From Patescibacteria group bacterium (lineage in GTDB: Bacteria; Patescibacteriota; Microgenomatia; UBA1400; PJMF01): a DNA stretch of 64,000 nucleotides. Numbering within the stretch: position 1 is the first letter of the stretch; each line of letters starts with the position of its first letter. The stretch lies in the NCBI GenBank assembly GCA_016861085.1, contig BOKR01000001.1:1098040-1162039 (forward strand), written 5' to 3'. The notes beneath the pieces are model-generated. The model was not told the origin of the DNA and did no database searches. It worked only from the letters and a program-made list of their open reading frames with translations. The position numbers and the translations under genes were made by a program. Shown here piece by piece: positions 2,856-23,318 of this stretch.

Positions 2856-2856
2856 T

Positions 2857-3240
2857 ATGTCACTCTTTTCTTTCCCTAAAGTCTATGCTCAAACACCAGA
2901 AGAATTGGTTGGAGACATTGCAATCCCAAAGGGTGTTGACCTCATTAATCAAGACGCAGGTGGCATTGGGGTTGTTTTATTCATCTCTAATATGATCCGA
3001 CTTATTATTATTCTAGGAGGAGTGTGGGCACTTTTGAATATTATTCTTGCTGCATTTGCGTACCTTACTGGGGGCGGAAAACCAGACACACATAGTAAAG
3101 TCAGTAGTCGGTTCACCATGAGTGTTATTGGCTTGTTATTAATGATTGTTTCATACAGTATTGCAGCACTCATCGGTTTACTATTCTACGGAGAAGCATC
3201 ATATATCCTTACACCAACAATAACACCAATTGGTGGATAA
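2857..3240 (+). CDS. TrbC/VirB2-like pilin paralog P2 (short leader MSLFSFPKVYAQ)
   Basis: Loop motif FAYLTGGGKPDTHSKVSSRF between two TM helices. C-terminal tail ILTPTITPIGG. Starts 1 nt after the P1 stop. Confidence 0.5.
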   Translation: MSLFSFPKVYAQTPEELVGDIAIPKGVDLINQDAGGIGVVLFISNMIRLIIILGGVWALLNIILAAFAYLTGGGKPDTHSKVSSRFTMSVIGLLLMIVSYSIAALIGLLFYGEASYILTPTITPIGG

Positions 3241-3245
3241 CAGAT

Positions 3246-3827
3246 ATGAAAGTATTTTTAATAAAAGCAATCAGACAGATCATCTTAAGTATTTTTACTG
3301 TGTTAATTTTTGCAGGTGTACTATTTTCCCCTCAGCTTTCTATTACAAAACAAACTTTTGCAGCAGACGGGTGTGCATATGCAGGACACTGCATAAATAA
3401 CAAAAAATGTGTTTGCCCTATCCCTGGTTATTATGACTGCAGATATAGTCCCCAAGCTTTGGTTTTAGGTGAAGAGCCTTGCGGTTCTGCAATTATTGGT
3501 GGTGTTGAACCTCCAGCTGCAGTTGGAGCTATCAATGCTGCATCAGGTGGTGACATTGGTTTGATTTTTTTCATTTCTCGAGCAATTGGTTTTGCTAATA
3601 TTGTTGCAGGAATTCTAGTAATGATTAACTTTGTTGTCGCAGGATTTTTGTATGTGACTGGGGCCGGTAACCCTAGCAATATGGCTAAGATTAATGAACG
3701 GATGCTCTGGAGTTTTGTTGGTATATTAATAATAGTTGGTTCTTATTCTCTGGCTGCCTTGTTTGGCTTAATATTTTATGGAGATCCGACTTTTATCATT
3801 ACTCCAACATTAACAGGAGCAGTTTAA
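3246..3827 (+). CDS. TrbC/VirB2-like pilin paralog P3 with a Cys-rich N-terminal insert
   Basis: Full signal/TM leader, a Cys-rich ~50-aa insert, then a conserved 2-TM core (FLYVTGAGNPSNMAKINERMLWSF) and the tail IITPTLTGAV. Confidence 0.5.
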   Translation: MKVFLIKAIRQIILSIFTVLIFAGVLFSPQLSITKQTFAADGCAYAGHCINNKKCVCPIPGYYDCRYSPQALVLGEEPCGSAIIGGVEPPAAVGAINAASGGDIGLIFFISRAIGFANIVAGILVMINFVVAGFLYVTGAGNPSNMAKINERMLWSFVGILIIVGSYSLAALFGLIFYGDPTFIITPTLTGAV

Positions 3828-3863
3828 TAAATACTTGGTATAATAAAGAAAAGAAAAGTCAGT

Positions 3864-4235
3864 ATGTTACTACCAACACTCATTGCACAACAATTTGGAA
3901 GTTTTAAACCAACCTCACCTCTCGTCGAGGGCGCTGAAGAAAATCCGGGAGCAAACTTAGAAGCAATTATTTCAAATGTACTTGGGGTTTTAACAATTGT
4001 TGGTGGAATTTTCTTCATTATTTATTTTATGGTGGCATCCTTTGAGTGGATTACAGCTGGCGGTGATGCTGGAAAACTTACTACTGCGCGAAATAAAATG
4101 ATGCAAGGAGTTTTAGGACTCATTGTATTGGTCGCAGCGTATGGAATTATTGGTCTTATTGGTAGCTTAGTTGGAATAGAGTTACTTAAACCAGCTGAAC
4201 TGCTTGAAAGTGTCACACCTGGTACGGGAACCTAA
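3864..4235 (+). CDS. TrbC/VirB2-like pilin paralog P4 (short leader MLLPTLIAQ)
   Basis: Core motif FEWITAGGDAGKLTTARNKMMQGVLGLIVL is shared with P5-P8. Confidence 0.5.
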   Translation: MLLPTLIAQQFGSFKPTSPLVEGAEENPGANLEAIISNVLGVLTIVGGIFFIIYFMVASFEWITAGGDAGKLTTARNKMMQGVLGLIVLVAAYGIIGLIGSLVGIELLKPAELLESVTPGTGT

Positions 4236-4237
4236 TT

Positions 4238-4660
4238 ATGAAATACCTTTCAAAAAAAATTACTACAGTTTTAACAGCACTTGGATTATTTTTATCAAAA
4301 ATTGTTTTCGTTCATGCCCAAATCAAAAATCCTGTAACAGGAGAACTAGGTGCAGATGCAGAAGAAGCTGCTTCAGGAGAAATTTTTGTGAGTTATTTTG
4401 TTACTTTATGGAATGCCTTCATTACCATTGGCGCAATAGCTGTTTTAATCATGTTCCTCTGGGGGGCACTTGAATGGATTACCGCCGGTGGTGAAGCCAG
4501 TAAAATTGAGAAAGCTCGTAATAGAATTATGCAGTCTTTCTTAGGTTTGCTCATTTTAGTTAGCTCATTTGTAATTATTGGTTTTGTCAGTCAATTATTC
4601 TTTGGTGAGGAATTTTCTATCCTTAACTTAACATTTACACAGGTTGGAGGTGAAGAATGA
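4238..4660 (+). CDS. TrbC/VirB2-like pilin paralog P5 (full signal peptide ...VHAQ)
   Basis: LEWITAGGEASKIEKARNRIMQSFLGLLIL core. Starts 2 nt after the P4 stop. Confidence 0.55.
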   Translation: MKYLSKKITTVLTALGLFLSKIVFVHAQIKNPVTGELGADAEEAASGEIFVSYFVTLWNAFITIGAIAVLIMFLWGALEWITAGGEASKIEKARNRIMQSFLGLLILVSSFVIIGFVSQLFFGEEFSILNLTFTQVGGEE

Positions 4661-5178
4661 AACAACTTTTTTTGACATTTTTACTTTTGCTTTCAATTGA
4701 AGTTGGTGTAGTAACACAAAAAGTACAACTCACTTCCACTGTTTATGCTCAAGAGCCAATTGAGCTCAACTTTGGAGATGTTGCCGATGAACGGGAGATT
4801 ATTGGTACAGATCTATACGAACCAGATGATGGTGAAGCTGGTTTTGGTGCGTTAATTGGTCGAATATTAACAATAGTAGTCACAATTGCTTCTATTATGG
4901 TGTTAATCATGTTCCTCTGGGGTGGTCTAGAATGGATTACTGCTGGTGGAGATAAAAGTAAAATTGAAAAAGCTCGTAATAGAATTACACAATCCTTTAT
5001 TGGAATGATTGTATTAGCTGCCATGCTTGCTTTGTTTATGCTTTTACAACTTTTCCTTGACTTTGAAGTATTTACCTTTGGTGGAGGTTCTTCTAACACA
5101 TCCACACCTCCAAGTGTTCCTGGAAATCCTAGCCAACCTGGCTGGCCTGGAGCTCCTGGAGGAAACATACCTTTATAG
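4657..5178 (+). CDS. TrbC/VirB2-like pilin paralog P6 with a C-terminal Pro/Gly-rich tail
   Basis: LEWITAGGDKSKIEKARNRITQSF core. ATGA overlap with P5. Tail is PPSVPGNPSQPGWPGAPGGNIPL. Confidence 0.55.
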   Translation: MKQLFLTFLLLLSIEVGVVTQKVQLTSTVYAQEPIELNFGDVADEREIIGTDLYEPDDGEAGFGALIGRILTIVVTIASIMVLIMFLWGGLEWITAGGDKSKIEKARNRITQSFIGMIVLAAMLALFMLLQLFLDFEVFTFGGGSSNTSTPPSVPGNPSQPGWPGAPGGNIPL

Positions 5179-5190
5179 TAAAAAGTAAAC

Positions 5191-5220
5191 TTGACGTTCT
5201 GTCTCAAGCACAGGTATAAT
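5191..5220 (+). promoter_or_regulatory. sigma70-like promoter (TTGACG-N18-TATAAT) for pilin paralog P7
   Basis: TTGACG at 5191-5196 and TATAAT at 5215-5220. The RBS AAAAGGA precedes the ATG at 5269. Confidence 0.55.
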
Positions 5221-5268
5221 TAGTAATAAGTAGTCAGTAATTAGCTGAAAAATAAAAAAGGAACACAT

Positions 5269-5637
5269 ATGAGAAACAAACTCAACGGTTTAGCTCTAAC
5301 AGCAGCCGCATTTGTAACATCAGCTCCAGCAGTATTTGCACAAATTCAAGTTGAAGAACCAGATTCATTCTTCTTTTCTGATATTGGTACACTGATTAAT
5401 AAAGCACTTAACTTTGTTATGGTACTTGGTGCTCTTTTGGTCTTCATGTACCTCATCTGGGGTGGAATTGAATGGATTACTTCTGGTGGTGACAAGGGTA
5501 AGACTGAGAGTGCTAGAAACAAGATTACCGCTGCAGTTCTTGGTTTGATCGTCCTTGCTGCATCTTGGGCAATTCTTGGCCTCGTCCTTAACTTCTTAGG
5601 CGCAGGTTCATTAAATGATGTCTTAGATAACATTTAA
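5269..5637 (+). CDS. TrbC/VirB2-like pilin paralog P7, monocistronic; candidate major expressed pilin
   Basis: Signal peptide ...VFAQ, core IEWITSGGDKGKTESARNKITAAVLGLIVL. It has its own promoter, a strong RBS and an intrinsic terminator. Confidence 0.6.
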   Translation: MRNKLNGLALTAAAFVTSAPAVFAQIQVEEPDSFFFSDIGTLINKALNFVMVLGALLVFMYLIWGGIEWITSGGDKGKTESARNKITAAVLGLIVLAASWAILGLVLNFLGAGSLNDVLDNI

Positions 5638-5658
5638 TACAGATTAGTTTTTTGAAAA

Positions 5659-5687
5659 GCCCCTCATTTATGTGAGGGGCTTTTTTA
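5659..5687 (+). terminator. Rho-independent terminator after P7
   Basis: GCCCCTCA-tttatg-TGAGGGGC followed by TTTTTT. Confidence 0.8.
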
Positions 5688-5752
5688 TTGATTTGTTAAA
5701 GGGGTGTGCTCCTTCGTCACTCCTAAAAAATCAATGTTATAATTAATTCATC

Positions 5753-6190
5753 ATGACTGGAAAAAACTATTTCTCTAAACTTGAAAAAATTTTTATTGCT
5801 GGTGTTGCTTACTTATATTCAACTTCAACAGCATTTGCTCAAACTACTGCCTGGTCTGGTGTGTGTGTAGGTGGAGTTGATAATGACGTTGCAACTATCC
5901 AAGGTCTTGAGTGTTTGATTGCAAATGTTTTCACCGTCATAATTACATTAATTGGTTTAGCAGCATTTGTGATGCTTATTGTAGGGTCTGTGCGCTGGTT
6001 AGTCTCTGGAGGTAATTCCTCTAATATAGATAAAGCCCGAAGCACTATGACCTATGCGGTGATTGGAATTGTTGTTGCACTTAGTGCATTTATTGTGCTC
6101 AATTTAATTGCTGGATTTACTGGTGTTGAAACAATCAAAACATTTACCATTCCTACTTCAGAAGATGTTGAACCACCTCCAAGTCCGTAA
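5753..6190 (+). CDS. TrbC/VirB2-like pilin paralog P8 (divergent)
   Basis: Signal ...TAFAQ, core VRWLVSGGNSSNIDKARSTMTYAVIGIVVAL, Pro-rich C-terminus. Confidence 0.5.
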   Translation: MTGKNYFSKLEKIFIAGVAYLYSTSTAFAQTTAWSGVCVGGVDNDVATIQGLECLIANVFTVIITLIGLAAFVMLIVGSVRWLVSGGNSSNIDKARSTMTYAVIGIVVALSAFIVLNLIAGFTGVETIKTFTIPTSEDVEPPPSP

Positions 6191-6244: not shown

Positions 6245-9200
6245 GTGCACAAAAAAGTACTGAGACTTCTGGTTCTACAGGTATTGTTTTTGTTGGTCTC
6301 ACTTGCAAAATTTGCAACACCAACCCATACTTTTGCGTCCGAGTTAATTGGTACTCACCTGGGTGAAGGTGATGTTGGGTATCAAGTCAACATCATCAAT
6401 ACAATCCTCATTCCTAATGGTTTAGAACCAGGAAGCCCAGTGACAGTCATGGTGCCTGTCACAATGCTACAGTCAAGCCAACAAGGATCAGTGCAACAAC
6501 TGGCAGCTGTTGTAGCTGGTGGTGGATTTTTTCCTATAGTTAGAATTAATGGAGTTTGTGAAGATTTTACTTCAGAAACAGGGCTAGATGCAGGGCAAGC
6601 AGTTGACCTTGCTCGAAATATTTTTGGTTCACAAGCATTGATTGTCTGGGGAAATGAAATTAATAATAAAGAAAACGAATGCCGCAATTGGTCAAAATAT
6701 GTAAGTGATTGGGCAAAAATTAGTGGGAAATCAAACGTCAGTCCAGCTGCTCTTGATTATTATATGGGACTGGATGCCTATAAAGTTTCTACTATGTTTG
6801 CCGAAACTCCTGGGATGGCAGCAATATTTAATACTGCACCAAGAGCTGCAAATGCGTACGGTTGTATTGGCCAAACAGCAGAAAGTTGCGAACCACTTGA
6901 AACAGTCACTCAACAAATTGGATATGAAGCTATTAATGGGACTCTCTTCCTTACAGAGTTTTCACTTTCTCCTGGAGGGAGTGCTCCAAATGCCCCAGAC
7001 ACCAATATTCAAAAAGTTTTAGAATTTATAGCGAGTAGAGCCGGTGAGACTCCCGCTGTAAAAGTCACCCCCCTTGTCAGGAATGTTTGTAACAATGAGA
7101 GTGACTGGTTACTTTACATTAATGGTAAATTATTTACTCCTCAAGGTACCGAAGTTTCTGAAAACTGCGAAGGAAGATCTGCAGACTCTAGTTATGATTT
7201 GAGCATTTATCCTGAGTATGATGTTGATGAAACCAAATTTTTCCTTTCCCCCATCAGAAACGTTATTGACTCAGGAAGCCTCCAGAGAACTACTGAAAAA
7301 TTAAGAAAAGAACTCGCACTACAAGGATATCAAGCATACTGTGCAACTGAGGGAGTTAAAATTGAACCTGAATATAACACTCAAGAAAAAATTAATCGGT
7401 ATTTTCTTCCAGAAAATTATAAAGGAGTTCAAATACTTGAGTTAGATGCAGTCGAAACCCTCAATATGACCAATGCTCAATACCCATTATGGAGAGATGT
7501 GAGTAACAAGCAATTTTTGCTTACCTCTCTTGAGGAATATTTTGGCTTTCGCGATGTGTACGTTTCCAACCCAGCCGATGCAGTACTAAACAGTTCCCCT
7601 ATCAACTCACTTCTTTCTGAGCCACAACTTTGTATGCAAGGGTGGAGAAATTTAGTAGCCCAAGAACTAGCTTGTGAGAGATTACAAAACCCTGGTGAAT
7701 GCGAACTTTTTACCAGACCAATCCCCAACTCGGCAATACCATACAATCCAGGTGTTGGCCCAGAGCTGTCACAGCAACAACAAAATATAGCTCCTCTTCC
7801 AACTGAAACGGAATTTACAGTCAAAACCTTACTTGATAAGTTAAAAGAATATGAGCCTGCATATAGAGATGGTACTGCAAAAGTTGGCTGTGAAGCCCTG
7901 ACGACAACTGATAGAGCCAGCAATGAGGCACTTTTACAAGGCCTTATGAACACCCCAACATATTTTGACAGAGCCTACAGATACGGATTTCTTGTTGCAG
8001 CAATCCATGCTAAAGATCCTGGCACAGATGAAGGTAATATTGCTACAAAACTATTTAATTTCTTCACCAAGAGAACTAGAACTCTTACTCCAGATGACGA
8101 AGTCTTGGTAGCCGCCTTTAAAATCCCAGATATTGGAACAAATAAAGGTGGTGGAGATGATACCGGTTCTCAATTTTGGTCTGATCCACTTGATTTAACT
8201 AGACAATTACTATTTAAAAACAAAGATAATAAAACCCATGAAGATGTAGATAGACCAAATAAGAGACAAACTATATTAGACCGAGCTGTTGGAGCAGCAA
8301 CACAAAATTCGGGAAGTAAAATTTATTGTGTGGATGGAAATAAAGCAACGGTCTCTTGTCAGAATGAGTTAACAAAAGCATTAACAGATATTATTAACGG
8401 AAATGTAGAAGGTTGTGGTGAGGCTGAAGCTGTAAACGTGATAAAAGACCTTGCTGGACTTGATAATCCTGCAGAGAAATATGGGAAAGCATTTAATAGC
8501 GATAATGGTCAACAAGTTATGCTTAACTTATTCTTTAAAGACCTTACTCACCCACCTCTTGGGGGCAATGGCCAAACAAATCCACAAATAGCAAAGACTG
8601 ATGATCCTGCGGAAAAATTACAATCATTATTTACTATTTCTGAAGATACCTGGCCTCCTGCAGTTGATTCAACTACTGTAGACTTTTATATTGTGTATCC
8701 AATGGGTTTCGAGCTTGATGCAGTTGAAAAAGCAATGAAGAGTGCGTTCTTTACCAAGGCTCAATTAGCCGCTTTAGAGACTGGGAATACTGTGGGAGGG
8801 TTTGAAATGACTGGACAAGCAATTGGTCTTGATGCTGGGTCTGTAGGTTTTAATTATGTTGACGAAATAAAGACGGCAAATGGAGAATGCGGTACTGAAG
8901 TAGCTACTTCAGGTGCTGTTACAAACAAACCTTGCGAAGAAGAGGTCACTATTGGGGTTAAACAGGAAAGTGCTGGAGTTGGAATACTTGGTGCTGAATT
9001 GGGATATTGGATGAGAAAAATTCAACTTCAACTCAACTCTCGCGCCTCAGAAGCATGGGCATACTTTGATTCGTGTAAAACAACAGAAGAATTTTTGCTA
9101 GGTCAATGTACTGGTGGAAATATAACTGGAAATGAAGGCGATGATGCACCACCAGTTACTGGTGATGCACTGGAGTCAGTTGCTCAATGTGATGGTGGAC

Positions 9201-9763
9201 CAAGAATCACTTCAGGAGAAACAGCAGAACACGTGGATACAACTGGAACCGGTGAATGTACTGGGAAACTCACCAGACTTTTTGTACCTGATGTTCATAA
9301 CATATCTGCCTGGAAAAATCCTGGTGATGCTGTCATCGATTGTGAAGACTTATACTCATATGCCGATTGTACATATCCCGAATCCCTCGTTCAAAATCCG
9401 GTTAATAGCCAAGGACAATTCGTAGAATCTGGAAATATAACGGCATGTGAGTTTGTAGTTAATGCGGCCAAAAGCGCTGGAGTTAGTCCAAGACTTGCTT
9501 TAGCAATGTGGGGTGAGGAGTCTGGCTTTAGCCATTATCGAGTCGCAGATTTTGGTGTGATTTCTAAACCAGCCCAAGATTTAGGTGCCCAAGTGAACTC
9601 ATTTATTAACATCTTGAAATCATATTCTTCATACATTGAATTTTTAGAAGCCTATTCTGGTGAAGAACGCGGATCTGGTGATCAGAGTCCAAATCAATTC
9701 TGTAACAATCCTAATTTTGTTGGAAGATTAAAGACATACTACGATTTTCTAGGTCCACAATAG
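6245..9763 (+). CDS. Large (1172 aa) Cys-containing secreted/anchored protein with a C-terminal peptidoglycan glycan-hydrolase-like domain (ESG motif of SLT/GH73 type); candidate PrgK/TraG(pIP501)/VirB1-like cell-wall hydrolase
   Basis: N-terminal signal/anchor LRLLVLQVLFLLVSLAKFA. C-terminus AAKSAGVSPRLALAMWGEESGFSHYRVADFGVISKP resembles the ESG(W/F)...FG motif of PG glycosidases. The ~1000 aa in between are unassigned. Confidence 0.4.
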   Translation: MHKKVLRLLVLQVLFLLVSLAKFATPTHTFASELIGTHLGEGDVGYQVNIINTILIPNGLEPGSPVTVMVPVTMLQSSQQGSVQQLAAVVAGGGFFPIVRINGVCEDFTSETGLDAGQAVDLARNIFGSQALIVWGNEINNKENECRNWSKYVSDWAKISGKSNVSPAALDYYMGLDAYKVSTMFAETPGMAAIFNTAPRAANAYGCIGQTAESCEPLETVTQQIGYEAINGTLFLTEFSLSPGGSAPNAPDTNIQKVLEFIASRAGETPAVKVTPLVRNVCNNESDWLLYINGKLFTPQGTEVSENCEGRSADSSYDLSIYPEYDVDETKFFLSPIRNVIDSGSLQRTTEKLRKELALQGYQAYCATEGVKIEPEYNTQEKINRYFLPENYKGVQILELDAVETLNMTNAQYPLWRDVSNKQFLLTSLEEYFGFRDVYVSNPADAVLNSSPINSLLSEPQLCMQGWRNLVAQELACERLQNPGECELFTRPIPNSAIPYNPGVGPELSQQQQNIAPLPTETEFTVKTLLDKLKEYEPAYRDGTAKVGCEALTTTDRASNEALLQGLMNTPTYFDRAYRYGFLVAAIHAKDPGTDEGNIATKLFNFFTKRTRTLTPDDEVLVAAFKIPDIGTNKGGGDDTGSQFWSDPLDLTRQLLFKNKDNKTHEDVDRPNKRQTILDRAVGAATQNSGSKIYCVDGNKATVSCQNELTKALTDIINGNVEGCGEAEAVNVIKDLAGLDNPAEKYGKAFNSDNGQQVMLNLFFKDLTHPPLGGNGQTNPQIAKTDDPAEKLQSLFTISEDTWPPAVDSTTVDFYIVYPMGFELDAVEKAMKSAFFTKAQLAALETGNTVGGFEMTGQAIGLDAGSVGFNYVDEIKTANGECGTEVATSGAVTNKPCEEEVTIGVKQESAGVGILGAELGYWMRKIQLQLNSRASEAWAYFDSCKTTEEFLLGQCTGGNITGNEGDDAPPVTGDALESVAQCDGGPRITSGETAEHVDTTGTGECTGKLTRLFVPDVHNISAWKNPGDAVIDCEDLYSYADCTYPESLVQNPVNSQGQFVESGNITACEFVVNAAKSAGVSPRLALAMWGEESGFSHYRVADFGVISKPAQDLGAQVNSFINILKSYSSYIEFLEAYSGEERGSGDQSPNQFCNNPNFVGRLKTYYDFLGPQ

Positions 9764-9794: not shown

Positions 9795-10883
9795 TTAGGT
9801 CGAACTTGGTCCAAATCCTGAGGGATTATAGTTCAAGTCTCCTGGTTTAGGAGTATTTGTTTCCTTTTCAGGTGACTGCACGCCCTGTTGAATTTTAGAC
9901 TTATTTTTACTTCCTCTTGGTCTACCTCTTCCCCGTTTTGGTTCACTGGGAATACTCTTTTCTGACAGAATTTGAGGTTGTGGTGATACCGTTTCTTCTA
10001 CAACAAATACTTCGTCATCTTCATTTTGGCTTGATTGATTAAATACTTCTTGCTCAGTTTCATTTTCATTATTTGCAAGCTCATCACTTTGAGCTTCACG
10101 AGCAAATCTTCGTGCTCCGCTCCTGAGTAAGTAAGATACGACTTCAAACGTATCTGCGGTTGCTAAGTATGACTCTAAATTGTCTGTTTCTTCGTCGATA
10201 CCAGCAAGTAGATTAGTGGCAACTTCTTGATCTAGTTGATAGTTTAGTTCCCTTAAAAGTAACGCAACGTATTCACTGACACTCGAACTTCCCAAAATAT
10301 CTAATTTCAAATTTCCAAATGAGGTCTCGTATGAGTTAATACTGACTAAGGCTGTATTTTGGTACAAATTTTCGTACCCAATATACAGTTGATCAAGTGA
10401 TTCTAAATCATCAACTCCAACCAAAATCACCATGTCTGCTTCTGCACCAGTGTAAGAAAAGGTAACATTCTCTCTAGAAAGTGGATTTACACCTTTTTTT
10501 GGCTTAATCGTGAGATACAGTTTTTGAGTTGATTCATCTATTGCAGAGGTAATTTTTTCGACAGTTTCTGGTGTGTAGTCTAATGTTATACACAAGTTCT
10601 TGTTGCCGACCTCAGTTCTAGTTTCATCTAAATAGACGATATCAGGTTCTGCACTTGCTAAACTTTCACTAGATAACAAAGTAATTGACTTATTCCCTAA
10701 TTGTTGGAATGTTTTATATAGTGCGGTTGCAGCAAACAAATGATCACGTAAAGCATCTGGTGCATATATAATTAATACCGACTCTGCTTGAGCGAATAAT
10801 TCTTTAAAAAGGGATACTTTGTGCTGATCAATCATACTATCTTTATAGGTCATATTATATACTATATATGACAAAATATACAC
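9795..10883 (-). CDS. Degenerate DHH/DHHA1 (NrnA-like) family protein with an acidic linker and C-terminal AT-hook (KRGRGRPRGSKNK)
   Basis: IIYAPDALRDHLFAATAL aligns to the NrnA HxxPDGDAxGS region but lacks the catalytic residues. The GRGRPRG AT-hook sits near the C-terminus. Confidence 0.35.
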   Translation of the reverse strand: MYILSYIVYNMTYKDSMIDQHKVSLFKELFAQAESVLIIYAPDALRDHLFAATALYKTFQQLGNKSITLLSSESLASAEPDIVYLDETRTEVGNKNLCITLDYTPETVEKITSAIDESTQKLYLTIKPKKGVNPLSRENVTFSYTGAEADMVILVGVDDLESLDQLYIGYENLYQNTALVSINSYETSFGNLKLDILGSSSVSEYVALLLRELNYQLDQEVATNLLAGIDEETDNLESYLATADTFEVVSYLLRSGARRFAREAQSDELANNENETEQEVFNQSSQNEDDEVFVVEETVSPQPQILSEKSIPSEPKRGRGRPRGSKNKSKIQQGVQSPEKETNTPKPGDLNYNPSGFGPSST

Positions 10884-10995: not shown

Positions 10996-12633
10996 ATGGC
11001 AAAAAAAGCGCTTGCTATACTGCTGGTTCTCTTTTCATTCTTGGTAGTTACTACCAAAATTTCTTACGCACAAACACCAACACCTACTCCAATTCCTCTT
11101 TATGACGAACCATTCTCACCACAATCAGATGCTGGGCTCGTTAAAAGCTACAGAGCTGCAATTGATGATGACGGGTGTATGACACCCTCATTAGAATGTT
11201 TAGTACATCAAGTTTTTAGGTTTGTTTCATTAGAATTTGTAAACTCAACTTTATACACAGAATTCAAACCAAATATAGAAGAAGAAGCTCAAGGACCTGC
11301 TACAAATAAAAATATATTAGCAAGTGCTGGAACACTCATTGGTCATTTTTATGGATATCCTGTTGCGAATACTCAAACGTATGTTGCAGACCTCATGGAT
11401 TCAGCACATATTACTCCAAGAGCATATGCTCAAGGCCTAGGATTTGCATCTTTAAATCCTATTCTTGAACTTTGGAAAGCATTCAGAAATGTTGCGTACA
11501 TGTTCTTTGTTGTCATCTTTATTATTATTGGTTTTATGATCATGTTTAGACAAAGGATTGGTGGACAGGCAGCAATTACTGCTCAACAAGCAATTCCAAG
11601 TGTTATCGTAAGCTTACTTTTAGTCACGTTTTCTTATGCAATTGCCGGTTTTATGATAGACATGATGTATGTCCTCATGTTCCTCATCATAGGTATTTTT
11701 GGACAAACACTTCCTGATGGAAGTACAAATCTCATTGACATGACAATATTACAAGTAGCTGGAGCACTTTTTAGAGCTACAAATGTTTTGAGTCCAGGAG
11801 AAAATATAGATCTTGTTAGTAACTTATTTGGTAGTCTTCTTGAGGTACCTGCTCTCAATTCAGTCCTTGGAATTGTTGGAGGTCTTACCTTAACCGTAGT
11901 GCTTGCTGTTGCAATCTTGATCGGGACTGTAAGACTCTTTTTTGAATTGCTAAAATCATATGCAAGTATCGTTATTAGTGTTGTCACTTCGCCAATAGTC
12001 TTGATGATGGGAGCTATTCCTGGTAAAAATCCAATTGTCCCCTGGATAAAAGACTTAATCGGAAACCTATTGCCATTTCCTGTCGTTTTGTTAGTTTTAG
12101 TGCTTTTTTATCAATTTAAGGCTGTAGGAAGTGGTGCCGGTAATGAAGGTGGATTTATTCCACCGTTCCTTATTGCCCGAGGGCAAGCAAATGCTATTGC
12201 AAGTTTAATGGGACTAGCCCTAATTCTAGCTTTACCAGAAATTGTTAAAGACGCCAAGAAAGGTCTTGTTAAAGAAGGCTTTGGTTCAATGGTGTTTAAA
12301 GCAGCTGCTGAATCTGCAAAACAAGGTTGGAAAGGTGGCGAAATTATTCCAGGGGCTGCTTGGTCTGCACCTGGGAAGTATGGAGTTTCTGGCAGCTTAG
12401 TTCCAGCAGTTACAGTTGGTGCTCCATTGGGAGCAGCAGGTGGAGCTATTGGTAACGTATTTAGAAGAAGAGTCCTTAGACAACCTATTAAAGAAGGTGC
12501 TCTCGAATCTGCAGGAGTTGGTGCACTCAGAGGTACTTTAAGGACTGGTGGTGCTCTGGGTAATAAGGTTCTGAATAAAGAAGCTCCAAAGAAAATTAGA
12601 GAGTTTGCAACGAAAGTTAGAAAAGGAATATAA
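10996..12633 (+). CDS. Polytopic membrane protein with signal peptide; candidate VirB6/TrbL-like T4SS channel component
   Basis: Signal peptide ...KISYAQ and five or more hydrophobic helices spread over 545 aa. Lies between the T4SS hydrolase and the VirB4 block. Confidence 0.4.
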   Translation: MAKKALAILLVLFSFLVVTTKISYAQTPTPTPIPLYDEPFSPQSDAGLVKSYRAAIDDDGCMTPSLECLVHQVFRFVSLEFVNSTLYTEFKPNIEEEAQGPATNKNILASAGTLIGHFYGYPVANTQTYVADLMDSAHITPRAYAQGLGFASLNPILELWKAFRNVAYMFFVVIFIIIGFMIMFRQRIGGQAAITAQQAIPSVIVSLLLVTFSYAIAGFMIDMMYVLMFLIIGIFGQTLPDGSTNLIDMTILQVAGALFRATNVLSPGENIDLVSNLFGSLLEVPALNSVLGIVGGLTLTVVLAVAILIGTVRLFFELLKSYASIVISVVTSPIVLMMGAIPGKNPIVPWIKDLIGNLLPFPVVLLVLVLFYQFKAVGSGAGNEGGFIPPFLIARGQANAIASLMGLALILALPEIVKDAKKGLVKEGFGSMVFKAAAESAKQGWKGGEIIPGAAWSAPGKYGVSGSLVPAVTVGAPLGAAGGAIGNVFRRRVLRQPIKEGALESAGVGALRGTLRTGGALGNKVLNKEAPKKIREFATKVRKGI

Positions 12634-12689: not shown

Positions 12690-15326
12690 TTAGCTGCTCT
12701 TCGTGCTAGTGTCCTGTTCTTCCCATTTAATTGGTCCTGGGGGAATATCAGATTTTCCTTCTTTCTTTTCTTCGTGTCCTTCAATTTCACCCATAGTATG
12801 TTCTGTTTTTATGAGTAGTTTTCTCAAACTCATTGAAAGACCAGGCTCCATACCTCTTGTTGATTCCTCAACCTTTTGATGCTCTTTTTCATGATGTGAC
12901 GGGTTCATTGGTCGTAATAAATCACCATCACGATCTTGTGGCCTTTGATCAGATCTGGCTTCAGAAAGTAACCAAGTCATATATGCTTTTACTTGAGGTG
13001 GTATGCCACCTCCAGATTGACTTGAATCTTGATCTTGCACTTTCTTTAATGCAAGATTTCTGAATCTCTCAAATTCTGGATTACTCCTTGGTTCTAAATA
13101 TTTAAACATTTTAATTAAAAATAAAAGTGCAAGAACATTCATCATATTGTGATGTGCGCCATCGACAATCTTGGCTTTACCAAGTTCACTTAAGAAAACA
13201 TCGAGCTTCCTTAAGAGTGCTTCTCCATCAATTGGCTTAACAGGTTCTTTTATTATATCCAATGCTTTCATCCAGCCAGAACGAGCTGTTAAATACATAT
13301 TAAAGCCCTTTTCTCGTTTGTCTGATGAATCTCTAAAGTATTTTTTTGCGTATTCTTCAAATTGAGCATCATTAAAAATGATTTTTTGAGCTCTTGCTAA
13401 ATCACCCATCTCTGCAGTTACAATCCTACCGGCCTTTGGTACTGCGTCCTTCATCATTTGACCAACATAGAAATCATAAAGTGTCGGGAATGTAGAGCCT
13501 TTTGGTACAAATTCATAACCGTTCCCGTCTTCTCTTGGTCTAATCGGATGGCTCGCTTTCCCTACTGAGTAGTCTTTTTCCAATGCCTTTGCCAAACATC
13601 TGTGTACATCGCTTTCACTCAAAAAGCCTTCAAACCAAGACCTGATACGCTCAGTTTCTACCTCACCATCTTCGATACGTGCTTTAGCAGCACGCGCTTC
13701 TAAAGACTTTAATGCAGTTCTTAGCTCAGCGTGTTCTCTTTTTTGAACATCTGTTGCATCTTTTGGTAAAGAAGCAACTCTGTTATACAGGTCTAGTACT
13801 CTGGTAGGATTGGTAAGTATCTTTGACCTTTTGATTATTGATCGGATATCATCATTTTTTGCTACTACATCCCCAGTACTGTTAAAGAATGTATTATGAG
13901 CAGCCTTTTCATGCCATTCATTTGGCACATCAACAACGGCTAACAAATAGTGACTCGCCTTAGGCTCGCGGGCATACCTATTCATATCATAACCCACAGT
14001 TACCTGTGGGCTTGCCATCCATGAATAATCCTCTCCCCCGAACCCTTTTGTTACAGCTGCGGCTGTATCATCTAAGAAAAAATGTCCTCGAAGATCAAAC
14101 GCATTTGCCAGTCTAAAAGCATGTGTAGCAATATTATCTATTAAGTGTTTTTCTGCAGCATTCGTTCCCGAGTTTTTAGCCTTGGTAAGCCAACCATTAT
14201 CTTTAACTATTAACTCTATAGCTTCACGGAGATTGGATTCATTGCCATCCATATTCCTAGCTAAAAATTGTCCTGGTCTAACAATAACGGTGCCTTTTTT
14301 TAGCTTTCTACCGCTAGAATCTTCAAGTAATTCTACTGTTTTTCTATCTTTTTCTGGTTTTTTGTTTTCTTCTTCTTGTGCGACTCGCAAATCATCAACC
14401 GGACCGACATTAGTCAAATTATTTTTTAACGTATATCCCACACAATTTTCACCAGCGTCATACATATAGAGTTCGAGCAAAGCTAAAACCCTCATTGCTA
14501 GGTTCCCAAACCTTTTATTTCTCAAGATTTCATGAACGTGTGTTACATCAAACCCGCTTTGTTGAAAACTTTTTTCTAAATATGCTTTGTAATCAATGGT
14601 GAAGCCATTTCCTCCAGACCTAGGGTCAGCTTTATAGAGAACAGTCCAGGTAGTAAGTGCTGTTCTCCAATAACCCTCATACTGTTTAAATTCGGGATGT
14701 ACTTCGACAAGTCTGTTAAATTCACCTCTAACTCTAACATTATTTGCAAACTCAGCTTCGTCTGCAGGTTTAATTTCCGAAATTGCATAATTAATATAAT
14801 CCTCAGGGAGCCATCTATGTCTTTCTTGTGGTCTTTCTTCCCAAGCAGGCTTGACTTCACCAACAGCTGCTGTACCAGCATCGGCTTCTCTAGCAAACCT
14901 TGTTTCTCCTAGATCTCGCAAAGCTTTTTCTAATTTTTCTGAGGTGTTCTTAATTGGGCCAGTAACAAATTCATTATAGAACGTCACAGCTTCGTTATAA
15001 CTAATTCCTGATTTTTTTGAATCTTTAACAGCGAGATCAATTTTACCTAATATCGTTCTTCTATCTTTTATTTGATCACTATATCCACTGAAAACGTGAT
15101 AAAAAATTAGAAGGTTTTGTTTCATTGCCTCGGTGTTGAGTGTTCCAAGCGCAAGCATCTGGTTTGCTAATTCAGAATTTTTCCCAATTCTGATTATTAT
15201 CTCAATGAAAGGCTGCTTTAAATATTCTCCTTCAAATACTTTTAAAAAGTTGTCAACTTGCCAACCTAAATTAGTAACATCGTATCTGTTTAAAACTTGT
15301 TCTTCTTCTTGTCTTCTGCCTGGCAT
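12690..15326 (-). CDS. Large (878 aa) soluble protein of unknown function inside the T4SS locus
   Basis: Long ORF with no TM segment and no motif I recognise. Confidence 0.5.
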   Translation of the reverse strand: MPGRRQEEEQVLNRYDVTNLGWQVDNFLKVFEGEYLKQPFIEIIIRIGKNSELANQMLALGTLNTEAMKQNLLIFYHVFSGYSDQIKDRRTILGKIDLAVKDSKKSGISYNEAVTFYNEFVTGPIKNTSEKLEKALRDLGETRFAREADAGTAAVGEVKPAWEERPQERHRWLPEDYINYAISEIKPADEAEFANNVRVRGEFNRLVEVHPEFKQYEGYWRTALTTWTVLYKADPRSGGNGFTIDYKAYLEKSFQQSGFDVTHVHEILRNKRFGNLAMRVLALLELYMYDAGENCVGYTLKNNLTNVGPVDDLRVAQEEENKKPEKDRKTVELLEDSSGRKLKKGTVIVRPGQFLARNMDGNESNLREAIELIVKDNGWLTKAKNSGTNAAEKHLIDNIATHAFRLANAFDLRGHFFLDDTAAAVTKGFGGEDYSWMASPQVTVGYDMNRYAREPKASHYLLAVVDVPNEWHEKAAHNTFFNSTGDVVAKNDDIRSIIKRSKILTNPTRVLDLYNRVASLPKDATDVQKREHAELRTALKSLEARAAKARIEDGEVETERIRSWFEGFLSESDVHRCLAKALEKDYSVGKASHPIRPREDGNGYEFVPKGSTFPTLYDFYVGQMMKDAVPKAGRIVTAEMGDLARAQKIIFNDAQFEEYAKKYFRDSSDKREKGFNMYLTARSGWMKALDIIKEPVKPIDGEALLRKLDVFLSELGKAKIVDGAHHNMMNVLALLFLIKMFKYLEPRSNPEFERFRNLALKKVQDQDSSQSGGGIPPQVKAYMTWLLSEARSDQRPQDRDGDLLRPMNPSHHEKEHQKVEESTRGMEPGLSMSLRKLLIKTEHTMGEIEGHEEKKEGKSDIPPGPIKWEEQDTSTKSS

Positions 15327-15362
15327 AGATATCTGTTATTTTATCACTAAAACAAAAATAAA

Positions 15363-16622
15363 TTAAGCAGGGATGTTCCAGAGTTTTGCAAGTTTTTCAC
15401 CATCATCTTGTATTTGTTCAATAAAAAACAACATTGATTTGTCATCTAAATAGAATTTTTTATCTTTTTCACCCATTAAAGCAGATCCAAATTCCCTTCT
15501 GAATGCTTGTTTGTTTTTATCGCTCTCACCAGAATCGATAAACAACTCTTTCGTCATTTTAACTAGAAGGTCTTTCAAAGAGCCTTTGTCATCATCTTTT
15601 AAATCTTTAATTTTTTGTAACAATTCTCCATTCGACCCAGCCCATGTTTCATTAATTCTTTTTATTGAAGATTCTAAAGCAGCACCAACAGCACGGGGAT
15701 TGCTAAGCAATTCTCTAAAAAGAGGCAATGGTACGTTTTCATAAGAAACTCCATCAAACTCTGATGTCCCAAAACTCAAGCCGTCTCGCCCTCTTGTACC
15801 CACTGGATCAATTAAAAAAGATAGGAAAGTTTCCACACTACTTCCCTCATTAAGCTTAATTAGTGCATCAATCGATACAGATGTAAAGTTCAAAGCATCT
15901 TCAAGTTGTCTATTAATTTTTTCAGCTTTTTCAGCAGTAACATCAACTCCAATTTTTTCCCTGATTTTATTTTTTGCATCCTCAATACTTTGAGATTTTA
16001 GAGCTTCACCTAATCCTGTATGTGCTACAAAAACCAACTCTTTTTTTTGATGAATTAAATCAATTCTCTGTTGTATTGCCAAAAGGCTATCAATTTTTTC
16101 ATAAAGGTGCTTTATTTCTTCCTTTTGATGCTTACTTTCAAAGAAGTTTAACTGAGTTCCTACAGATTCAATTTTGTCTACAGTTTCAGCATATTGAAAA
16201 TCGAATGTTTGAGCATCTTCAAGAAAAAGCTGAACGTTATCTTTATTTTTTTCCATTTTTTCATATAACGTATTTAAGGAACCTTCTTTTTGTAAAAGAA
16301 AATCTCTTCCTTCATCTATATGCTGTAAAAAAGTTTCTTGTGTTAACTGTGGTATTGAACCTTGTAATTCGTCAGTAAGCTCAGTATCCAGTTCCTCAAG
16401 AGGTCCTTGTCCCCCAGCGCCAGCCTCAGCAGGATCTCCCCCACCTACTTGGCCAGTTGATGCATCAGTCCCAGCTTCAACAGCTTGAGGCTCGTCTCCT
16501 TCTGCGGGTGGTGTGTCAGCCGTTGATATAACCTCAGGTTCTCCAGCCTTTCCGCCTTCACCTTCATCTTTAACTACCAATACTTCATCTTCTGATAATC
16601 CGCCCTGTTCTTGCATATACAT
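15363..16622 (-). CDS. Hypothetical protein (419 aa) with an acidic, disordered N-terminus
   Basis: Long ORF co-oriented with and immediately upstream of the 878-aa gene. The N-terminus is rich in E/D/G/A. Confidence 0.5.
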   Translation of the reverse strand: MYMQEQGGLSEDEVLVVKDEGEGGKAGEPEVISTADTPPAEGDEPQAVEAGTDASTGQVGGGDPAEAGAGGQGPLEELDTELTDELQGSIPQLTQETFLQHIDEGRDFLLQKEGSLNTLYEKMEKNKDNVQLFLEDAQTFDFQYAETVDKIESVGTQLNFFESKHQKEEIKHLYEKIDSLLAIQQRIDLIHQKKELVFVAHTGLGEALKSQSIEDAKNKIREKIGVDVTAEKAEKINRQLEDALNFTSVSIDALIKLNEGSSVETFLSFLIDPVGTRGRDGLSFGTSEFDGVSYENVPLPLFRELLSNPRAVGAALESSIKRINETWAGSNGELLQKIKDLKDDDKGSLKDLLVKMTKELFIDSGESDKNKQAFRREFGSALMGEKDKKFYLDDKSMLFFIEQIQDDGEKLAKLWNIPA

Positions 16623-16826
16623 CTAGTTATACAAAACTCTGTTCGCTTTTTCCATTGCACTTTTTTGATAATTTCTGATATAACTACAACAACCAAAATA
16701 ATTGTGGAATCTAGTGAAATTCTAGAACTGTGCCGCAACGGTAAATTTGGCTGATAATTCCAGATAAGTCCGGTCTTCAATCGTTTTGAGTATTGGGTAA
16801 CCAATACAAGTAATTACCAACGTGCA

Positions 16827-18965
16827 TTGGATATCATGCTATATCAACCAACCGTAGAACATATTCCCAGGTTTTTACCTTTTCAGGGTGAACGCTCGTT
16901 TTGCCCTTCACTACCTGAAAGAATTACTTCTGTTCACAAACAACTTTTGGAACAAAGATTGCTGTTTCAACAGTTAGTTACAGAACAACTTAGAAAAAGA
17001 AAAAACAAAAAAAAAGAAGCACTGCATTCCAAAAACTCTATTTGGGATGCTGTTAAACTAGCACAGAGATTTCAAAAACCAGAATACCATACAAGACAGG
17101 CAAAAATTGATTTATTACGCTTTGATGCAGTTCACCATGCAAAAGAAATGGCACTTGTTGAGCCAGTTACTACATTTAGCTATTGGCATACAGTAGAAAA
17201 CAATCAAACGCTAGGTGACGGATATTTTGAAGACATGGGCCTTATGCTCAATACCTTTACTCAGGATTTAGCCCAAAACGGGTTTAACGCCAATAGAGCA
17301 AGTATAGAGTCTATCACCTTTGAAAGAGCAAAAAATATTTTAACCAAAATCGCTACTACAGGAAAAAAAGATGCCCTCTTAATAACAAGTTTTCCAGATG
17401 ATATTGAATCTGGCTATCACGGAGTTGATTCTAAACATAATTGGGACAAACCAGAAACGCACCATTCTTTTTACTACTTATTACAGGTAGGTGCAATTCA
17501 TAAAGATAAAGGTGGTTCAGTAACACAGTTTGAAATACATACTACTCAGTTCCGGGCTTGGCCAAATGCTCGTCAAGCGATTCAATTTCATGAACAACTT
17601 GGCTCTCCACTTACTCAATTTGACGCTCCAATCCCTAATTTATTATTTGCAAACACGATTCAATTAACTCAAGAAAACTTGGAATCTATCGCTAGCAGCA
17701 TGGGATTAACTGGACAATCAAGTATCGAGTCACTATTTAGAGAAATTTTGAACAGCTCTTCAGAAGAACATAGTATAAACAGCACACATATTCCTAAAGT
17801 GAATCTTTCAGAATTCTGGCAGGTTCAAGAAAATTATTTTAACGATTTTTATCTCACTGTTGCCCTCCCCGTTTTTGAAGAAATTTCTCAATTAGAAAAT
17901 AAAAAAATGGATCAAAAAACACAAAAATATCTTCAAACAAAAATTGATTATTTAGATAAAGCCTTCTTTTACTATTCAAAAATTATTCTTGGGTGGATTA
18001 AGATCCATAATACCAATCCAAATTATCTGGCTACATTTGCAGAAAAAAGTCGCATTCAAAAACTTATGGACTTTCAACAGAAATTACTGTTACAACTTTT
18101 GGGACAAAAACAAACAAATGATATCCCAAGCATTGATGATCTTAAAACAGTACTTGATATTGACCATAGACTAGCAACTCGACAAGCTGTTACAGGTGAA
18201 GAAAAGAAAAAATTATTGAGTATATGGGGATTTTTTTCTTACGTTGGCAATTTTGCGAGCTTATTGCAGTGTGGGGCTATGACGCCTTTTTCTATTCCCC
18301 TTTCAATTATGAATAGCACTCCAACTATGGGAGTATCACTTGCAGAGTTTTCTGGCTCACTGGTATCTATCTCATTGCCAGAAAGACAAAAGTTTTTATC
18401 ACTACTACAAAAAGAAACATATATTGAACTTGACTTAACAAAGCAAACCCCAGCAGCAAAGCGAGTGTATGTTGTACCCAAAAGTTACCTTGATGGTGCA
18501 GGTTGTATTGTAAATGACTCAGGTGAAGTATTAGGACCTTGTGTTGACCCTGTAACAAAACAGAGAATTTCTCTTGATGATCCAAGGGATACATTGGCTT
18601 TTCCAATGACTCTTGCTGAATTTACGCAATATATTAATAAATTGCAACAAAGTATTGAACAAACATCACTAACACAAATAGATTCTATTTTTCAAACAAG
18701 TGATTTTTCACCAATTGAAAAAAGAAAAGCTCAAGCTGTTATAAAAAAAATGAGACAAAAATTGATAAAAAATTCACTTGGTCTGCAAGAATTTATTTCT
18801 GGAAATATAACAAATGATCTCGAGTCAAATAATATATGGCTTCAAGAGTTAATTTTGAAATTGGCGTTTTCTATCAATCCAGTTCAAACCCTTATTGAAG
18901 AGGTTGAGCTTAGATTAAGGGAAAAAGATCCTATTTTGGAAGAGATTTTTGAGCAAAATAGCTAG
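16827..18965 (+). CDS. Hypothetical protein (712 aa), function unknown
   Basis: Long ORF. First gene of a long plus-strand block that runs into virB4. Confidence 0.5.
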   Translation: MDIMLYQPTVEHIPRFLPFQGERSFCPSLPERITSVHKQLLEQRLLFQQLVTEQLRKRKNKKKEALHSKNSIWDAVKLAQRFQKPEYHTRQAKIDLLRFDAVHHAKEMALVEPVTTFSYWHTVENNQTLGDGYFEDMGLMLNTFTQDLAQNGFNANRASIESITFERAKNILTKIATTGKKDALLITSFPDDIESGYHGVDSKHNWDKPETHHSFYYLLQVGAIHKDKGGSVTQFEIHTTQFRAWPNARQAIQFHEQLGSPLTQFDAPIPNLLFANTIQLTQENLESIASSMGLTGQSSIESLFREILNSSSEEHSINSTHIPKVNLSEFWQVQENYFNDFYLTVALPVFEEISQLENKKMDQKTQKYLQTKIDYLDKAFFYYSKIILGWIKIHNTNPNYLATFAEKSRIQKLMDFQQKLLLQLLGQKQTNDIPSIDDLKTVLDIDHRLATRQAVTGEEKKKLLSIWGFFSYVGNFASLLQCGAMTPFSIPLSIMNSTPTMGVSLAEFSGSLVSISLPERQKFLSLLQKETYIELDLTKQTPAAKRVYVVPKSYLDGAGCIVNDSGEVLGPCVDPVTKQRISLDDPRDTLAFPMTLAEFTQYINKLQQSIEQTSLTQIDSIFQTSDFSPIEKRKAQAVIKKMRQKLIKNSLGLQEFISGNITNDLESNNIWLQELILKLAFSINPVQTLIEEVELRLREKDPILEEIFEQNS

Positions 18966-18998
18966 AAATTAGCAGGCAACTCAGGGTATAATTAGTTC

Positions 18999-23318: not shown

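Follow-up and report, generated by a model that had tools for sequence, protein, structure and literature searches.

Secretion systems of type IV (T4SSs) are widespread in Patescibacteria, and the system was essential for epibiotic growth in the one species tested (PMC11665869, PMC12102498). An origin-proximal T4SS resembling the mating-pair-formation (MPF) type FATA has been described for these bacteria (Quinonero-Coronel et al. 2025, PMC12102498). In that survey, equivalents of VirB1, VirB6, and VirB8 were mostly undetectable and relaxases were absent; the T4SS of Ca. Southlakia epibionticum is cited there as essential. The biological role of the Patescibacteria T4SS has been termed "completely unknown" (PMC11665869). 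The present computational analysis concerns a stretch of 64,000 nucleotides (nt) from the genome of an ultra-small bacterium of the Patescibacteria (GenBank assembly GCA_016861085.1, contig BOKR01000001.1, positions 1,098,040 to 1,162,039 of the forward strand), hereafter called the window, and four large genes within it. They are named p878, p419, p712, and p1439 after the lengths of their open reading frames (ORFs) in amino acids (aa).

It is rather probable, in our judgment, that the four are lineage-specific accessory genes of an origin-proximal T4SS and that they fall into three distinct modules, i.e. p1439, p712, and p419 with p878. The type of locus is already known, as is the transmembrane (TM)-anchored T4SS hydrolase as a kind of protein. 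What appear to be new are the architecture of p1439 and the swapping of its terminal module, a p712 family with an obligatory riboswitch that heads a T4SS operon, and a hypervariable p419/p878 cassette. An initial annotation of the window had treated the four genes as one class, comprising either machinery or effectors. The single class gave way to three modules, and p712 proved to be the cargo of a cobalamin riboswitch that had been missed. A machinery role is favored for p1439, which is membrane-anchored, co-conserved with VirB4, and equipped with CHAP or M23 domains in its orthologs; p419 and p878 are retained as effector candidates only.

The window covers the region of the replication origin in a Patescibacteria genome of low GC content (33–48%). 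At the protein level, p712 matches BroJett025_11050 and p878 matches BroJett025_11030 with 100% identity; these two entries belong to a metagenome-assembled genome (MAG) held at NCBI as Patescibacteria group bacterium. As in the surveyed systems (PMC12102498), a pilin array and PrgI/VirB3, TrsD-like, and VirB4 genes lie beside dnaA/dnaN/rnpA, the VirD4 gene is distant, and the scan of window ORFs showed no relaxase. Because the pilin array, PrgI, the TrsD-like gene, VirB4, and the dnaA adjacency match the published description, the locus is, judged from its gene content, the origin-proximal, chromosomal, MPF-FATA-like T4SS already reported for Patescibacteria (PMC12102498). The four genes are embedded in it, as had been proposed, with pilins upstream and the PrgI/VirB3-like, TraC/TrsD-like, and VirB4 genes downstream (23934–28462; Table 1). 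The present account differs from the survey in naming a VirB1-analogue candidate (p1439) and in adding a riboswitch; the four proteins belong to the genes left unannotated in loci of this type.

Sequence Searches and Comparative Loci

The comparative set consisted of 11 loci (L003, L004, L007–L014, and L016) recovered from JGI, Logan, ENA, and NCBI via homologs of p1439, p712, and p878; it is a sample drawn through homologs, not a systematic genome survey. In the closer relatives, VirB4 is 86–90% and DnaA 72–87% identical to the window's proteins. Positional homologs of the four proteins share 59–61% (p878), 24–46% (p419), 23–63% (p712), and 25–58% (p1439) identity with them. Because such diverged homologs occupy equivalent positions in other genomes, the four ORFs are taken to be genuine genes rather than products of chance. 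Their coordinates and strands stand as first annotated. The sole correction is to p712, whose likely start is the ATG at 16836; this start agrees with the gene calls on identical Logan/NCBI contigs and yields a protein of 709 aa.

Searches of Pfam, NCBIfam, PHROGs, PADLOC, and PDB sequences, carried out with single sequences and with profiles, returned no domain for any of the four proteins. The exceptions, both in p1439, were a motif-level HExxH in the C-terminus and a weak PHROG match ("tail associated lysin", E 0.0034) over residues 996–1136 in the Gly-rich TM region, where the sequence is of low complexity. The initial statement that no domain could be assigned outside the C-terminus of p1439 was thus borne out. 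A tblastn search of 50,697 phage and 72,556 plasmid records returned no match to p1439, and the plasmid records likewise contained none to p878 or p712. Given these blanks and the chromosomal location of the locus at oriC, an origin from a mobile element was rejected, as was a defense-island origin of p419/p878, for which PADLOC gave no match. The initial annotation had pointed to homologs scattered in genomes lacking a T4SS, and to housekeeping domains, as findings that would count against its proposal. The searches turned up no homologs away from T4SS loci and none among the phage and plasmid records covered, and no housekeeping domain was assigned to any of the four. Co-conservation with virB4, which it had suggested examining, holds for p1439, and p712 is co-conserved with the T4SS.

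The p1439 Protein

Several resident, TM-anchored wall hydrolases are known from the T4SSs of Gram-positive bacteria, i.e. PrgK (pCF10), TraG (pIP501), CwlT (ICEBs1), and TcpG (pCW3). From the domains found in its orthologs, p1439 is most likely a protein of this kind, namely a membrane-anchored wall hydrolase of the T4SS and a candidate VirB1 analogue. Its three regions are delimited in Table 1. The N-terminal region is conserved to differing degrees among orthologs and closes with a K/R-rich stretch ahead of the first hydrophobic segment. The Gly-rich TM cluster contains an invariant IGRTIWALGSIGG, and its hydrophobic segments (residues ca. 1050–1230 by hydropathy) precede the C-terminal domain, as they do in the orthologs.

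The evidence for a hydrolase comes from what follows the TM cluster. The orthologs in L011, L010, and L008 align to p1439 only until residue ca. 1263–1278. After the last TM segment, those of L011 and L010 carry a CHAP domain (26.1 and 27.7 bits, respectively; Pfam gathering score (GA) 26), and that of L008 carries a Peptidase_M23 domain (61.9 bits). Because the orthologs stop aligning at residue ca. 1270 and then carry CHAP or M23, the C-terminal position is, as read from these alignments, a wall-hydrolase slot that is exchanged between lineages. The last 200 aa of p1439 itself have no Pfam match and display only the HExxH and ExxAE motifs, a C-terminus of a type shared by L003, L004, and L007. 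The residues H1352-E-T-G-H1356 and E1391-A-F-A-E1395 and four Cys are invariant in the three sequences of the window's subtype that were compared, a family size at which coincidence is possible. An ExxAE motif that supplies the third zinc ligand is the gluzincin pattern. By its position, the HExxH domain may be a metallopeptidase-like variant of the exchanged module.

Genomic context ties p1439 to the secretion system. Its gene always follows p712 and precedes p194/PrgI/TrsD/VirB4, and does so even where identity is 26%; the operon position is identical in the window, L003, L004, L007, L008, L010, L011, and L014 and is co-conserved with virB4. Like PrgK, TraG, CwlT, and TcpG, p1439 is encoded in a T4SS operon and is membrane-anchored, and its orthologs bear modules of the CHAP/NlpC-P60 or LytM/M23 type. 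It differs from them in its N-terminal region of ca. 1040 aa, in its multi-segment Gly-rich TM cluster, in having a single, swapped C-terminal module (an unclassified HExxH domain in the window), and in lacking a soluble lytic transglycosylase (SLT)/lysozyme domain; no sequence similarity to these Gram-positive hydrolases was detected. No homology to the VirB1/TrsG/CD419 or SLT families was found in Pfam, NCBIfam, or PDB sequences, and p1439 is therefore described as an analogue, not a member, of the VirB1 family. There was also no family match to VirB6/TrbL/PrgH, despite the hydrophobic segments.

In the topology that we infer (N-in/C-out), the N-terminal region, which lacks a signal peptide, would be cytoplasmic and tethered by the Gly-rich TM cluster to an extracytoplasmic hydrolase module. 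As the envelope-breaching component of the system, that module may open peptidoglycan of the cell itself or of its host where the channel is located, a task that PrgK, TraG, and CwlT perform in the conjugation systems of Gram-positive bacteria. The exchange of the lytic module hints at an adaptation to differing cell walls, perhaps host walls. Three points tell against the assignment. The TM count from hydropathy is ambiguous (4–6 segments), the HExxH domain is without any family match, and the AlphaFold2 (AF2) model of residues 1195–1439 had a predicted local distance difference test (pLDDT) score of 39.7, which made it unusable for a fold search.

A related reading makes p1439 a translocated penetration protein, comparable to phage tape-measure/tail-lysin proteins such as Pb2 of T5, that is extruded via the T4SS, inserts its Gly-rich hydrophobic segments in the host envelope, and digests host peptidoglycan. 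It would accommodate the lack of a signal peptide, and p1439 does share with tape-measure proteins and tail-associated lysins a long N-terminal region, Gly-rich hydrophobic segments, a C-terminal muralytic module, and the PHROG match. The muralytic modules are swapped in the manner of polymorphic toxin tips, and the epibiotic lifestyle of Patescibacteria needs access to a host (PMC11665869). We nonetheless regard this reading as unlikely. The PHROG match is weak and lies in low-complexity sequence, no phage homologs were found by tblastn, no phage genes are nearby, and the gene sits in a T4SS operon. The architecture is explained more simply by the resident TM-anchored hydrolases of Gram-positive bacteria, and the membrane-anchored hydrolase is accordingly preferred.

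The Cobalamin Riboswitch and p712

Cobalamin riboswitches control vitamin B12 synthesis, B12 transport, or B12-independent isozymes. In the window, an adenosylcobalamin (AdoCbl) riboswitch match fills the intergenic region between the divergent p419 and p712 genes and ends at the start codon of p712 (Table 1). A match to the cobalamin clan occurs upstream of the p712 homolog, at the equivalent place and strand, in all 10 loci that have p712 (the window and nine others). The scores outside the window were 48.6 (L007), 48.1 (L008), 46.2 (L011), 43.4 (L013), 43.3 (L004), 36.3 (L009), and 32.1 bits (L014), with RF01689 matched in L012 (39.9 bits, above its GA of 36.5) and RF00174 in L010 (21.9 bits). 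L003, the sole relative without a p712 homolog at the position, has no riboswitch match. Because the match precedes p712 in 10 of 10 loci and both are absent from L003, the riboswitch and p712 are, by co-occurrence, a unit that travels together.

The conserved parts of the aptamer were examined across loci. Seven loci share, with little or no variation, the elements TGGAATCTAGTG...GCCGCAACGGT and the B12 box AAGTCCGATCTTCAA, despite insertions of 9–76 nt between them. The insertions between the two conserved halves of the aptamer measure 70–76 nt in L004 (7390–7459), L009 (9796–9866), and L010 (6887–6962), compared to 9–18 nt in the other loci; the longer ones look like an expansion of the peripheral domain. 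The weak covariance-model scores of these three loci are attributed to the 70–76-nt insertions, which separate otherwise invariant halves. The P1 closing helix has 11 pairs, with 90.9% of the cells paired and compensatory double changes in five of the 11. Its covariation score was reached by none of 500 shuffles, and slid registers were 30–49% paired. Covariation was computed on an insertion-trimmed alignment; in the untrimmed leaders (MAFFT/RNAalifold), the insertions led to misalignment of the 3' half. Folding the leader by minimum free energy gave no useful information (z = −1.3).

No intrinsic terminator was found after the aptamer; "terminator-like" matches in the leader were rejected, as they are an internal aptamer stem. 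A conserved CAACGNGCATTGRA lies just 5' of the p712 ATG in the window (16812–16835), L004 (7574–7590), and L010 (ca. 7013–7030), and the spacing between aptamer and ATG varies. It is a candidate expression platform that could act via sequestration of the ribosome-binding site or a kissing loop. Since no terminator follows the aptamer and the conserved CAACGNGCATTGRA abuts the start codon, p712 is most likely controlled at translation. In the mechanism that these features suggest, bound cobalamin would block translation of p712 (an OFF switch), and the protein would be made when B12 is scarce. A TATAACTA-like octamer is present directly 5' of the P1 helix in the window (16678–16686) and at the equivalent position in L004, L007, L009, L010, and L011. 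This octamer probably serves as the −10 element of the promoter of the p712/T4SS operon, in which case the transcript would begin directly with the aptamer.

The p712 protein, the product of the gene that opens the T4SS operon, is soluble and has no TM segments by hydropathy. An exhaustive HMMER search through 1.84 billion representatives gathered a family of 55 clusters, nearly all of them 600–800 aa in length. Residues E104, R154, S185, C479, and C569 are invariant, and Y130, E158, Y194, G196, Q238, and G567-P568 nearly so; the invariant set (E, R, S, C, C) would be in keeping with an enzyme or a ligand-binding protein. None of 47 family members has a Pfam domain. MetE, NrdA, and NrdD, which are typical B12-riboswitch targets of similar size, were rejected as identities for p712 on this account and because its predicted secondary structure is not that of a triosephosphate isomerase (TIM) or ribonucleotide reductase (RNR) barrel. 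A relaxase reading of p712, suggested by its His/Tyr motifs, found no support and was dropped. As far as sequence comparison reaches, p712 is a new family whose functional clues are the obligatory cobalamin riboswitch and the fixed place at the head of the operon.

Compared to cobalamin riboswitch regulons (clan CL00101; leaders of btuB, metE, nrd, and cob/cbi genes), the window's element has the same aptamer core, B12 box, P1 helix, and 5' leader position ending at a start codon. It departs from them in that the controlled gene belongs to an uncharacterized family, heads a T4SS operon in a patescibacterial host, and has no domain of a B12 enzyme or transporter. The survey of Patescibacteria T4SSs has no mention of a riboswitch or cobalamin (PMC12102498), and a full-text literature search found no link between riboswitches and T4SSs; the connection thus appears to be unreported so far.

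Several points weigh against a riboswitch-led p712 module of the T4SS. Eight of the 10 riboswitch matches fall below the Rfam gathering scores, with three of them weak (36, 32, and 22 bits), and L003 supplies the only case in which p712 and the riboswitch are missing together. The AF2 model of p712 (pLDDT 63) had no convincing structural neighbor. No recognized B12-binding motif was found in the protein, so that its link to cobalamin is through the riboswitch alone. Linkage of p712 to the T4SS was confirmed in eight of 10 loci; those of L012 and L013 are short contigs. Finally, a promoter-like site lies in the window's p712–p1439 gap, and the T4SS genes may therefore escape riboswitch control.

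Some of these observations are also what would be expected if the riboswitch and p712 were an ordinary B12-regulon unit, i.e. a B12-independent isozyme or a corrinoid-handling protein that is a neighbor of the T4SS without a functional link to it. Such a unit would fit the known targets of cobalamin riboswitches and the enzyme-like invariant residues of p712, and the T4SS operon of L003 is intact without either p712 or the riboswitch; the promoter-like site ahead of p1439 is likewise in its favor. We hold a mere neighbor to be improbable, for p712 stands first in the T4SS operon wherever the context is informative, down to ca. 23% identity. Moreover, no member of the family has a Pfam domain characteristic of known enzymes or transporters related to B12, and p712 is without TM segments and without plasmid homologs. 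A p712 module that belongs to the T4SS is thus retained.

How far control by the riboswitch would extend along the operon is a separate matter. Between p712 and p1439 lie 19–37 nt in the window and in four further loci, compared to 101 nt in L004, and polarity on the T4SS genes is possible because the gap is short. The downstream genes may thus be co-regulated with p712, and the riboswitch would tie the deployment or function of the T4SS to a host-derived cofactor. A metabolite-sensing RNA on the first gene of the operon offers a regulatory handle on when the T4SS is used. In its strongest form, to which we give a fairly low probability, B12 would gate the whole T4SS operon via p712 as a B12-starvation regulon. 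The p712 protein would then either be a new kind of corrinoid handler or respond to B12 by activating or gating the channel, and the system would serve the uptake of host cofactors or nutrients, not conjugation. If the B12 link does cover the whole operon, a nutrient-acquisition role of the T4SS is favored.

The p419/p878 Pair

The genes p419 and p878 form an operon that is divergent from p712, with p419 as its first gene. The p419 protein is acidic (net charge −36) and soluble. Its N-terminal ca. 95 aa are of low complexity, and the last ca. 160 aa are the conserved part. It constitutes one family over the eight closer loci (19–48% identity in the family alignment), was undetectable in L012–L014, and has no Pfam or PDB match. 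The p878 protein is also soluble, and its family has only five clusters among 5.8 billion. Proteins of the p878 type are found in the window, L007 (59%), L011 (61%), and L016 (38%); every p878-type gene found sits in a T4SS locus.

The slot occupied by p878 holds at least four mutually unrecognizable large soluble proteins in relatives whose VirB4 proteins are 86–90% identical. The long slot proteins of L003, L004, L008, and L010 (1160, 1197, 1244, and 1140 aa, respectively) are remote collinear homologs of one another. Those designated L009_1242, L014_1098, and L013_1072 match nothing. The possibility that p878 is a diverged ortholog of the 1160- and 1197-aa proteins was rejected (hhalign probability 0.1%, no HMM match). 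The slot type was also compared to the hydrolase type of p1439 in the same locus. The p878 type occurs with HExxH (window) and with CHAP (L011), and the long type with HExxH (L003) and with CHAP (L010). Because all four combinations occur, the locus is considered to be a mosaic formed by exchange.

The favored picture is that p419 would be a conserved, fast-evolving acidic partner, whereas the large second gene would be a replaceable cassette. From their arrangement and variability, it is plausible that the pair comprises a substrate or effector with its cognate adaptor. Like effector/adaptor or polymorphic-toxin cassettes, the pair places a conserved partner beside a large, replaced protein and shows a mosaic assortment of modules; unlike them, it has no toxin domain, no immunity gene, and no recognizable secretion signal. 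A coupling protein for export, of the VirD4 type, is present in the window. A search for translocated substrates would best begin with this hypervariable cassette.

An alternative is that p419 and p878 are cytoplasmic structural or regulatory subunits of the T4SS, e.g. a platform of the coupling complex, that co-evolve rapidly, and that the occupants of the slot are orthologs diverged past recognition. The conserved position and orientation of the pair in eight closely related loci are consistent with such subunits, as are the single p419 family over those loci, the remote collinear homology of the long forms, and the lack of a tail that resembles a secretion signal. On the other hand, identity in the slot falls from ca. 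60% to undetectable between genomes in which p712 goes only from 60% to 53% and VirB4 remains at 86–90%. The hhalign comparison of the p878 and long types gives no sign of a common origin, their lengths are 260–370 aa apart, and which slot type a locus has does not depend on the hydrolase type of its p1439. This alternative is accordingly assigned a low probability, and a replaceable cassette is preferred. Two observations do count against the cassette. The extreme divergence of the slot proteins is not fully separable from replacement, and the C-terminal translocation-signal charge pattern that had been suggested did not materialize. Over the last 50 aa, the net charge amounts to −2 in p878, 0 in p419, and −7 in p712, with no positive tail, although this is a VirB/D4-type criterion that may not fit MPF-FATA/Patescibacteria systems.

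The broadest form of the effector proposal, in which all four proteins are secreted effectors or toxins, is very unlikely. The proteins are large, unannotated, and T4SS-linked, and a VirD4 homolog is available. However, the TM cluster and wall-hydrolase module of p1439 are typical of machinery, and p712 and p1439, in contrast to the members of effector repertoires, keep their places in the operon across deep divergence. The C-terminal tails also lack a positive charge.

Two conserved C-terminal sequences were noted among the slot proteins. A short motif (K/G-I-I-G-S/V-K/A...) is common to L003_1160, L004_1197, L008_1244, and L010_1140, which are otherwise very divergent, and the p878 type has its own conserved tail, SDIPPGPI[KQ]W. 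These motifs could be recognition tags.

Neighboring Genes

The features of the window are collected in Table 1, where they follow the gene order; after VirB4 come dnaA, dnaN, rnpA, yidC, and khpB, followed by a gene for RNase H and further housekeeping genes.

Table 1. Positions of the four genes, their subregions, the riboswitch, and neighboring T4SS-related genes in the window
Feature	Position	Strand	Length, evidence, or remark
Eight tandem VirB2-like pilin ORFs	2475..6190	+	126, 127, 193, 123, 140, 173, 122, 145 aa; PF18895 T4SS_pilin
p1172	6245..9763	+	Signal peptide, 24 Cys; hydropathy, composition; no Pfam match
p362	9795..10883	-	Soluble, conserved locus member; no Pfam match
p545	10996..12633	+	Signal peptide and about 7-8 TM segments; hydropathy; no Pfam match
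p878	12690-15326	-	878 aa
p419	15363-16622	-	419 aa
AdoCbl riboswitch RF01482 (clan CL00101)	16679-16837	+	5' leader of p712, 3' end at ATG; Rfam 51.4 bits (GA 50), E 1.6e-6 for whole window
p712	ORF 16827-18965, likely ATG 16836	+	712 aa ORF, 709 aa from ATG
p1439	18999-23318	+	1439 aa
p1439 N-terminal region, residues 1-1040	18999..22118	+	No signal peptide; presumed cytoplasmic
p1439 Gly-rich TM cluster, residues ca. 1041-1239	22119..22715	+	Hydropathy, conservation
p1439 C-terminal domain, residues 1240-1439	22716..23318	+	Four Cys; HExxH/ExxAE motifs; no Pfam match
p194	23321..23905	+	Single-pass membrane protein, adjoins 3' side of p1439; hydropathy, synteny
PrgI/VirB3-like	23934..25115	+	CarboxypepD_reg-like C-terminal domain; Pfam PF12666, 28.3 bits (GA 27)
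TraC-like/TrsD-like	25149..26333	+	Resembles VirB4 N-terminal domain; NCBIfam TrsD, VirB4_plasma N-terminal matches; PF26593
VirB4 ATPase	26354..28462	+	Directly upstream of dnaA; Pfam P-loop_TraG, AAA_10, CagE_TrbE_VirB
dnaA	28636-30177		DnaA Pfam match
VirD4-type coupling protein	53563..55746	-	About 25 kb from virB4; Pfam TrwB_AAD_bind, TraG-D_C

All eight pilin ORFs matched PF18895: four exceeded the gathering score, one fell just short of it at 26.0 bits (GA 26.6), and three matched weakly; the first three ORFs of the array are strongly diverged (16.5–21.6 bits). Homologs of p1172, which is probably a surface protein or adhesin, were found at the equivalent position in L003 (59–65%) and L014 (37.5%), and homologs of p362 in L003, L007, and L014 (38–77%; 38% in L014). 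The p545 protein has homologs of 44–73% identity at the equivalent position in all loci, L014 (46%) and L016 included. Without a family match, it is a candidate VirB6-like channel protein and a better choice for VirB6 than p1439. In the closer loci, p194 is 44–50% identical and directly follows p1439; elsewhere, the gene at this position encodes 234–325 aa, with a Big_5 domain in L011. A VirB8 analogue is possible. The order of the backbone genes is kept even in L014, where identities to the window are 46% (p545), 38% (p362), 37.5% (p1172), 26% (p1439), and 23% (p712).

The VirD4-type gene adjoins radA-like and rho genes. Just past the origin-proximal housekeeping genes, between the RNase H gene and rplY, a 973-aa DUF4012 protein is encoded at 34048–36969 (+).

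Some peculiarities of the database entries were noted. The MAG that contains L007 (CAZZDG010000001.1) is labeled uncultured Pseudomonadales bacterium, yet the locus is fully syntenic with the window (VirB4 90%, DnaA 83%); the label of MAG CAZZDG01 is almost certainly wrong. In L003, dnaA is called as two ORFs of 281 and 240 aa (19643–21204). In L007, the TraC-like gene is interrupted (15721–16855), with a 290-aa ORF and the rest matching further downstream. Both the split and the interruption are likely to be frameshifts or metagenomic assembly errors.

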